Origin: Tricharina praecox
Taxonomy: Eukaryota
Assembly (NCBI RefSeq): GCF_024521635.1
Contig: NW_026250406.1
Span: forward strand, 1,116,001-1,180,000
Reading direction: 5' to 3'
Length of the DNA: 64,000 bases
Shown here one piece after another: positions 3,001-61,276 of this stretch. How positions within the stretch are numbered: position 1 is the first letter of the stretch; every line of letters starts with the position of its first letter. A program made the position numbers and the translations under genes. The notes beneath the pieces were generated by a model. The model worked only from the letters and a program-made list of their open reading frames with translations. It had not been told where the DNA came from and made no database searches.

Positions 3001-3588
3001 TTTGCGATCGAACGCGAAAAGAAAGCTCTCTACTAGTACCTATTATCCCCAACGTGTTGTCAACCACTACCCAACACTCGATCGCCCAACGTCCAGCTCG
3101 CATCCTTCCTTCCAAGTTCCTACACTTATGACCGCGTAATTCCACGCACCTCAACAGCTCCTCCCCCACTTGGAACATACCCCTCCTGGTCTGCGCCAGA
3201 CGGACCAACCAAGCGATGCTTCGACTGCCCGGCTTTCAGGTCCGCCGGGAACTCACATTTCATTACGTCCTCGGCCTCCCTTCCGCGCCGTACGTATCCG
3301 GTGCGAATGTAGGAAATACAGGTAGCCGAAAAAAGACGAGGGCTGCCGCATATTTTAAAGAGGGGACGATGAAATGGTGCTCCTTGGCTGGATTTGATGG
3401 TGGACTGGGCTAACGCACGGCGAAGCACTCAGCACCGGGTGCTGGGCGGTGGCGCGAGGAAGGAAGTGGGAAGTGAGGGTTCGACATGGAGATGCTTGAA
3501 ATGCGACGGCTTACAAGAGTTGCTCTAGACCCTCCGCAGGGCCAGTTCACGCCTCAGTAGCTGTCCAACTTCCAAAGCCGCACCTCCC

Positions 3589-3716
3589 AGCTCACTTCTC
3601 CCGGGCCGTGATTCTAAGCTCAATTTTCCAAGGCCGTGATTCCAAGCTCCCTCCTTCAAGGACGTGATTCCGAGCTCACTTCTCCAGGGCCGTAATTCCA
3701 AGCTCACTTCTCCAAG
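3589..3716. repeat. Degenerate 28-bp minisatellite, ~4.5 copies
   Basis: Units like AGCTCACTTCTCCAGGGCCGTGATTCCA start at 3589, 3617, 3645, 3673 and 3701 (exact 28-bp period). Confidence 0.85.
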
Positions 3717-4041
3717 CAGCCTCAGATTCTCCACAGCGTCACCGCACTCCAAGGGCTCAAGCTCCACTCCTAAACACGCACCTCCCACTCCCCTCTTCAA
3801 GTTTCCGGGTACAGTACCAGCAAATCCGAGTCGCCATCCTGTCCGACAGCCCTCCAATGTTGTAAATAGCGGCTTTCCATCCCATCTCGCCACACGCAGA
3901 CGAAGGACAGCCTACAGATAGCATCACCACCTGCATCGCACCCACCGGCCCCTACCCACGTATTGCTTCTTCTCGGAGCCCCTGGGAGAGCTCGTCTGTA
4001 TTTCTGGTAGTAGTAATAGTGGTGGGGGGGTGGGGGTGCTT

Positions 4042-4218
4042 CACAAGTTCTCACTTTTTTTTGTTCATTCATTGATTGCGTGCGACCTACCTATCTAGAT
4101 CATAGCAATATCTACCCCCCCCCCCCTCCCCGGTTTCCCCGCCACTGTCCAACCCAACTTTCATCAGGCAGCCTGATGTGGCTTTCCCTGCCCCCGCGAT
4201 CCCACACAAGTTCTCACT
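4042..4218 (-). mobile_element. Short non-LTR retroposon (SINE-like or truncated LINE 3' end), copy 1, with 14-bp target-site duplication
   Basis: CACAAGTTCTCACT occurs at 4042-4055 and 4205-4218, flanking a 149-bp insert whose minus strand ends ...GCAATCAATGAATGAAC(A)7. 4057-4197 aligns ungapped to the reverse complement of 35569-35709 (about 114/141 identical). Confidence 0.8.
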
Positions 4219-5729: not shown

Positions 5730-5815
5730 TTCCGTTACGGGGAATTGAACCCCGGTCTGGCCGGTTTAATGCTCTGCTTGAGAGCGGCCGATGCTAGCCA
5801 CTACACCATAACGGA
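5730..5815 (-). tRNA. tRNA-Glu (anticodon CTC) with 14-nt intron
   Basis: Reverse complement TCCGTTA-TGGTGTAGTGGCTAGCATC-GGCCG CT CTC A [AGCAGAGCATTAAA] C CGGCC-AGAC-CGGGG TTCAATT CCCCG-TAACGGA-A; acceptor, anticodon and T stems pair; T-run terminator follows. Confidence 0.95.
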
Positions 5816-35363: not shown

Positions 35364-35449
35364 TTCCGTTACGGGGAATTGAACCCCGGTCTGGCCGGAT
35401 TAATGCTCTGCTTGAGAGCGGCCGATGCTAGCCACTACACCATAACGGA
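35364..35449 (-). tRNA. tRNA-Glu (CTC) with 14-nt intron
   Basis: Same mature sequence as the 5730 copy; intron AGCAGAGCATTAAT; trailer TCTTCTCTTTT. Confidence 0.95.
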
Positions 35450-35546: not shown

Positions 35547-35723
35547 AAAGTTCAACGGCACGGCCACGGCGGGGGCAGGGGAAGCCACATCGGACCGCTC
35601 GATGAGAATCGGGTTGGACAGTGGTGAGGAAACGGGGGGAAGGTGCACGGGAAGATATTGCCATGATCTAGGTACCCAGGTCGCCTGCAATCAATGAATG
35701 AACAAAAAACAGTTGAATAGCAC
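35547..35723 (+). mobile_element. Short non-LTR retroposon, copy 2, with degenerate target-site duplication
   Basis: 35569-35709 is ~81% identical to the reverse complement of 4057-4197 and ends GCAATCAATGAATGAAC(A)6. Flanks AAAGTTCAACGGCAC (35547-35561) and ACAGTTGAATAGCAC (35709-35723) match 11/15. Confidence 0.7.
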
Positions 35724-36107: not shown

Positions 36108-36193
36108 TCCGTTATGGTGTAGTGGCTAGCATCGGCCGCTCTCAAGCAGAGCATTAATCCGGCCAGACCGGGGTTCAATTCCCCGTAACGGAA
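36108..36193 (+). tRNA. tRNA-Glu (CTC) with 14-nt intron
   Basis: TCCGTTATGGTGTAGTGGCTAGCATCGGCCGCTCTCA[AGCAGAGCATTAAT]CCGGCCAGACCGGGGTTCAATTCCCCGTAACGGAA followed by T-runs. Confidence 0.95.
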
Positions 36194-52098: not shown

Positions 52099-52184
52099 TC
52101 CGTTATGGTGTAGTGGCTAGCATCGGCCGCTCTCAAGCAGAGCATCAAACCGGCCAGACCGGGGTTCAATTCCCCGTAACGGAA
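52099..52184 (+). tRNA. tRNA-Glu (CTC) with 14-nt intron
   Basis: Same mature sequence; intron variant AGCAGAGCATCAAA; trailer TCATCTCTTTT. Confidence 0.95.
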
Positions 52185-61190: not shown

Positions 61191-61276
61191 TCCGTTATGG
61201 TGTAGTGGCTAGCATCGGCCGCTCTCAAGCAGAGCATTAATCCGGCCAGACCGGGGTTCAATTCCCCGTAACGGAA
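61191..61276 (+). tRNA. tRNA-Glu (CTC) with 14-nt intron
   Basis: Same mature sequence; intron AGCAGAGCATTAAT; first T-run of 4 or more is at ~61318. Confidence 0.95.

Follow-up and report, generated by a model that had tools for sequence, protein, structure and literature searches.

The 149-bp insert (copy A) that we analyzed in a 64,000-nucleotide stretch of the Tricharina praecox genome, hereafter the window, is in all likelihood (roughly 93%) a defunct copy, truncated at its 5' end, of a LINE that belongs to this fungus, has the APE-RT-RNase H type of ORF2, and is probably a member of the Tad clade. The original prediction had described it as a SINE-like element of defined length. We found this description unsupported, because copies with the same tail run from 29 to 1764 nt and 27 out of 95 continue into LINE ORF2.

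The structure of the insert was exact on re-measurement, with a perfect 14-bp duplication, 149 bp between the two duplication arms, and an A7 tail (Table 1). The duplicated 14-mer, CACAAGTTCTCACT, has no further occurrence in the window on either strand, and the minus-strand end of the insert reads CAATCAATGAATGAAC followed by A7. Other copies of the family have the same 3' motif and then an A-rich tail, frequently broken by C or G. The A-rich tail, the 14-bp duplication, and the common fixed 3' end support the earlier proposal that the insert was made through target-primed reverse transcription by LINE machinery. Identity between the body of the insert and the ends of longer copies running into ORF2 (e.g., L034, L002, and L004) was 91%–93%. 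Judging from the alignment, the seven nucleotides at the 5' junction could be either untemplated or upstream sequence following an 8-nt deletion. ARAGORN made no tRNA call on copy A and Rfam gave zero family matches across the whole window, in agreement with the earlier report that the insert has no tRNA or 5S head. Copy A lacks a promoter and an ORF and is most likely functionless. Four or five degenerate repeats of ~30 nt occupy positions 3560–3780 of the window, about 300 bp from copy A.

Table 1. Features of the window and of the related 1.2-kb element (positions without a locus name are those of the window)
Feature	Position	Strand	Basis
Target-site duplication, arm on the element's 3' side	4042..4055	.	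Exact 14-mer, two occurrences in the window
A7 tail of copy A	4056..4062	-	Read from the sequence
Final 135 nt of the 3' UTR of the RNase H-bearing LINE	4063..4197	-	Identity to longer copies
Predicted 3'-terminal hairpin (ATTGC...GCAAT)	4075..4109	-	Fold and alignment pairing; prediction only
5' junction, 7 nt out of register with the family	4198..4204	-	Alignment
Target-site duplication, arm on the element's 5' side	4205..4218	.	Exact 14-mer
Copy B, a further 5'-truncated piece of this LINE tail with heavier decay	35562..35708	+	80.9% identity to copy A over 141 bp
Decayed 15-bp duplication of copy B	35547..35561, partner 35709-35723	.	11 of 15 bases match
1.2-kb non-autonomous retroposon	L048:1346-2553; L053:1201-2436; L094/L131; relatives L139-L218	- (L048); + (L053)	Own 5' end, one ORF, LINE tail

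Copies of the insert occurred across the genome, and their 5' ends formed a continuum. The original prediction had called for a genome-wide search for further copies, a tabulation of their 5' ends, and a search for a resident LINE with the same 3' end. We searched the 38.4-Mb assembly (104 contigs). A first search with the insert as query returned 199 candidates, 40 of which were scored, and favors copies that equal or exceed the query in length. For a second selection we used a 27-nt motif of the 3' end alone, chosen to avoid this bias, which gave 139 matches in the genome compared with none for a reversed control, well above chance. The 5'-end analysis covers 95 of these 139 matches. Strict duplications (11–20 bp in this family, with one mismatch allowed) were present in 39 of the 95 copies and absent from 56, compared with 9 of 937 mismatched flank pairs that served as control; at least one call, at L007 inside a local tandem repeat, is doubtful. 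The 39 duplication-bounded copies had no dominant shared 5' end. By length, six were shorter than 60 nt, five were 60–119 nt, four 120–159 nt, seven 160–299 nt, six 300–599 nt, six 600–999 nt, and five at least 1000 nt. Only four out of 39 fell between 120 and 160 nt, two of which represent one duplicated locus, and 55 out of 95 copies were longer than 170 nt when homology was used where a duplication was missing. Separately, an identical 39-nt tail insert was found with similar flanks at four loci (L087, L090, L092, and L109), so it has been carried along when another repeat or a duplication was copied.

These lengths weigh against a defined SINE-like unit of about 140–150 nt that originated in the LINE tail and is transcribed and copied whole, an explanation we consider very improbable. 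Six of 93 non-duplicate copies are 130–150 nt long by duplication or homology, and subfamily conservation starts about 14 nt upstream of the 5' end of copy A, both of which would suit such a unit. However, the excess was not significant when measured against copies of 79–250 nt (6 out of 25, two duplicate loci dropped, p=0.08). L075, which is among the six, owes its short length to a deletion alone, its start lying far upstream in the LINE, and the other five start at differing nucleotides. There may still be a weak preference for stopping near 130–150 nt. SINEs are expected to share a 5' end among most full copies and to carry a Pol III head of small-RNA origin. We found instead the length range given above, no tRNA, 5S, or other Rfam head, and, upstream in longer copies, the 3' UTR of a LINE. 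The 3' tail is shared with a resident LINE, which is also expected of a SINE; the entire insert is the LINE's 3' end. The continuum of lengths and the junctions with ORF2 largely refute the SINE-like unit. A fixed 3' end with an A-rich tail, duplications of variable length, and variable 5' ends continuous with ORF2, all of them seen here, are what truncated LINE copies show.

The second copy in the window does not imply a unit of fixed length either, although its similar length and 5' end had been read that way. Copy B was confirmed as an ungapped match to copy A over 141 bp (35569–35709) with 27 mismatches, 19 of which are transitions. The decayed duplication brackets it as claimed, and we note that this duplication was read by eye and lies under the strict threshold used genome-wide. 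In a comparison of 62 copies (self included), copies A and B proved only distantly related, each ranking 53rd for the other at 80% identity. The nearest relatives of copy A are LINE-type copies at 91%–93% identity, the top seven all being longer than copy A, and those of copy B are other, longer copies at 87%–89%. Given this distance, their similar length does not go back to a short master from which both descend. Copy B was formed by the same route as copy A, in a separate event and from another subfamily. A tree of 3' ends, from which eight locus ids were omitted (seven with a deleted or interrupted core and one duplicate), had good support at nine of 58 branches and is too weak alone for subfamily assignment; its 150-nt cut also brings in flank for short copies. 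Copy B lies ~110 bp from a tRNA gene, which raised the idea of insertion targeted to tRNA neighborhoods; across the family, the raw count of copies with a tRNA call within -1500 to +100 was four out of 95. Over 56 kb, the window contains five genes for tRNA-Glu(CTC), each with an intron of 14 nt (5730–5815, 35364–35449, 36108–36193, 52099–52184, and 61191–61276), which are miscalled as tRNA-Leu when the intron search is omitted.

A resident LINE with the same 3' end is present in this genome, with the tail joined directly to the ORF2 C-terminus. In longer copies, a long ORF ends upstream, and a variable 3' UTR lies between it and the tail. In the 1500 nt examined upstream of each tail, 27 of the 95 copies had a same-strand match to the ORF2 C-terminus ending no more than 700 nt from the tail, and RNase H was reached in five. 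The RNase H of L031 was recognized by Pfam (RNase_H, E=1.6e-14), together with a cysteine motif whose weak zf-RVT match fell below the cut-off. L037, which was found separately, extends to the C-terminal part of the RT and has a duplication on both sides, at ~2.2 kb overall. The protein linked to the tail shares 61% identity with P0158, which contains RT and RNase H, and 26%–36% with full APE-RT-RNase H proteins. The closest relatives found for ORF2 were metagenome proteins (49%–61% identity), and Aspergillus cristatus proteins reached 28%–30% over the same region. Where relatives of the associated proteins have names, they come from ascomycetes (Tricharina praecox, Aspergillus cristatus, and Fusarium), and we take the host to be a filamentous ascomycete. 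Placement in the Tad clade is probable on the basis of domain order and host; the end of the RT and RNase H occur within the family, and APE was seen only in the relatives at 26%–36% identity.

We found no intact full-length member with an endonuclease and a complete RT in the genome, and none of 140 RT matches inspected by eye lay upstream of a listed tail. The sole copy seen with both LINE ends, L043 (610–5560, minus strand), retains the 5' end together with an ORF1-like frame and the C-terminus of ORF2. Its APE and RT are missing, their expected place being taken by ~900 bp of DNA with no relation to the LINE, and it is bounded by a weak, A-rich 12-bp duplication. The best ESM Atlas match of its ORF1-like frame scored 0.87, which we treat as a lead only. 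A LINE 5' end similar to L043's is directly adjoined by a short copy of the tail at L128 (G000:C24, near 189,790). L042 (4750–8480, plus strand) holds a decayed member of a sister LINE family, which has RT, RNase H, and a cysteine motif but another 3' end and is split by two or three repeat-rich insertions. We rejected its RT as the master of the family, with 39%–49% identity to the ORF2 C-terminus and no match to the tail on its strand. Many of the 140 RT matches, which are spread over many contigs, have long open frames of equal length (1273, 1384, or 1442 aa) that are clustered or near contig ends, and these are probably recent LTR retrotransposon families. A further RT match (L044, at C17:1004669) sits in a spliced gene that we take, from motifs, to resemble telomerase reverse transcriptase beside a MutS-like mismatch-repair gene.

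Retrocopies, too, should end in an A tail and be flanked by a duplication, and both would fit a processed pseudogene fragment, in which the 3' end of a cellular mRNA was copied by a LINE. We give this explanation almost no weight, given that there are at least 139 dispersed copies and that the sequence upstream is LINE ORF2 rather than a cellular gene.

Contigs from four soil runs of one study agreed with the truncated LINE copy. In these contigs, other copies run past positions 4193–4197 into the same upstream LINE sequence. Summed depth in run X1 was up to 500 over the insert compared with about 6 on the flanks, and one contig from this run spans the 5' junction without difference, showing that the insert is present in that sample. 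None of the four runs, of which only X1 was informative about an empty site, yielded a junction that bypasses the insert. We note that the best soil run and the assembly may have closely related sources, and we do not count this evidence as fully independent.

Established LINE biology suggests how such a copy could have formed. ORF2p would bind the 3' end of a full-length LINE RNA, the endonuclease would nick the target, and reverse transcription would be primed on the A-rich tail. Reverse transcription would then halt after about 140 nt, and a staggered second nick would give rise to the 14-bp duplication. The original prediction had left the transcription of the insert unexplained, yet with a LINE transcript as the template, the insert needs no promoter of its own and the missing Pol III head needs no explanation. 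More tentatively, recognition may have been of the stringent type, via the conserved 3' UTR and the predicted terminal hairpin. Stringent 3' recognition that depends on a stem-loop is known for several LINEs, and two fungal SINE/LINE pairs are listed in one paper (PMC3747384).

A 3'-terminal hairpin may form in the LINE tail, as predicted by folding and alignment. The fold of the last 60 nt of copy A was not significant (z=-1.42). In the hairpin alignment, 93.7% of cells were paired across 81 distinct rows, a value biased upward by the selection of rows on the 3' strand of the hairpin. Insertions were mostly within the loop region, which in copy A holds a 4-nt insertion. Covariation did not exceed that of shuffled alignments, as 88 out of 500 shuffles reached the observed value. 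We also rejected a conserved structure over the whole 150 nt, which was unsupported (z=-0.61 and -0.40). Short copies piled up at the 5' foot of the hairpin, with 14 out of 22 copies of 27–78 nt ending at 43–52 nt (binomial p=6e-6), a bin that was picked after inspection and in which most ends are homology-defined. Inserts of ~45 nt ending at the predicted hairpin foot were seen at L071, L073, L076, L082, L089, L096, L122, and other loci. For MGL, preferred RT exit points have been described close to predicted hairpins (PMC2104539).

The LINE tail also occurs on a second, smaller element. In nine of the 95 copies, two of which (L060 and L114) are only loosely so classed, the tail is joined to different sequence, and this partner shares its last ~150 nt with the LINE. 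L048, L053, and L094 have a common 5' end and duplications of 14–16 bp, at lengths of 1200, 1229, and 898 nt, the last with an internal deletion. Truncated partner copies with duplications measured 528, 602, 697, and 1159 nt. The partner lacks RT and has a single ORF, broken in the three translated copies. At the 5' end it is similar to L043 (5 out of 2000 shuffles reach the score), and its ORF had no significant similarity to the ORF1-like frame of L043 (E=0.53, one 113-aa segment).

The existence of this element raises the question of whether copy A is a truncated copy of it rather than of the LINE. The partner has the same tail and leaves truncated copies of its own with flanking duplications, so that either donor could yield a 149-bp insert. 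However, copy A is 91%–93% identical to LINE-type copies and 83%–86% identical to two tails of the 1.2-kb element, and most tails of that element form one supported branch (97/84) that includes neither copy A nor copy B. We therefore regard the partner as a highly unlikely source and the LINE as the donor of copy A.

Relatives of the partner were found at 80 metagenome loci. The 5' motif was present in 36 of the 80, the tail lay within range in 17 of these 36, and eight of the 17 had a duplication. These eight have six distinct flanks and lengths of 1270–1297 nt. An intact partner ORF of 287–288 aa was found in three out of 37 loci, with one start motif used. The ORF carries a zinc knuckle (zf-CCHC, E=1.8e-6), and its ESM Atlas matches reached only 0.77. 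The body of the partner is 78% identical between the two lineages, and dN/dS of the ORF between them was 0.55 over 284 codons, a rough value that includes some out-of-frame codons. Partner tails, based on two copies of each kind, were closer to the LINE from the same source (80%–85% here and 81%–88% in the metagenome) than to the LINE from the other source (61%–77%). Metagenome partners and LINEs are nested within the same contigs, which suggests a single source organism. Several partner copies at metagenome loci lie in or beside LINE copies (L139 and L170).

With a defined 5' end, a single ORF, no RT, a LINE tail, and duplications, the partner has the features of non-autonomous LINEs that retain ORF1. 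We place roughly even odds on a joint proposal in two parts. The partner would be an undescribed fungal retroposon of 1.2–1.3 kb with a zinc-knuckle ORF of ~290 aa, a counterpart of HeT-A and HAL1 whose tail is renewed by, or has co-evolved with, each resident LINE. The LINE RT would tend to drop off just past the hairpin, with ~45-nt inserts marking the minimal recognition signal in vivo. A literature search by titles and abstract openings returned no paper describing a fungal example.

Both elements can be compared with described systems. LINE-Tad-RtPc5/PbNLR1 (Tad-CgT) of Paracoccidioides has two ORFs, an ORF2 with endonuclease, RT, and RNase H, and a poly(A) end, and 92.3% of its copies are truncated in isolate Pb01 (PMC4427930). 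Our family resembles it by description in its ORF1-like frame (L043), its RT end and RNase H (L037), and the truncation of nearly all copies. MGL and MGR583 of Magnaporthe have 10–20-bp duplications and a LINE 3' end common to non-autonomous partners (PMC2104539, PMC3747384). Our family is similar in duplication size, in a tail common to a partner, and in the preferred RT exits near predicted hairpins. Two Magnaporthe elements differ from what we found: Mg-SINE has a tRNA head, whereas copy A is without one, and MINE arises afresh in each event by fusion of a non-coding RNA with LINE segments that vary in length, whereas in the 1.2-kb partner the junction is fixed and an ORF is present (PMC2104539, PMC3747384). 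Bipartite non-autonomous LINEs with ORF1 include HeT-A, HAL1, and Ag-Sponge, which derive from the animal Jockey, L1, and CR1 clades, and no fungal or Tad example is named in the excerpt (PMC5786205). The partner is like these elements in having its own 5' end, a zinc-knuckle ORF, no RT, a LINE tail, and duplications, and in occurring as both full-length and truncated copies. By this analogy the partner fits the ORF1-present non-autonomous LINEs, with an ORF that may descend from an ORF1.

Truncated LINE tails are among the commonest repeats in fungal genomes, and the flagged insert itself matters little. It adds an apparently unnamed LINE family to a known kind of repeat, and it illustrates that two copies of similar length do not make a SINE. 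If the joint proposal is true, a protein-coding partner of a fungal LINE extends a class that is listed, in the excerpt of its source, for three animal LINE clades (PMC5786205). Tails matched to the LINE of each host would then be a natural test of template recognition by ORF2p.
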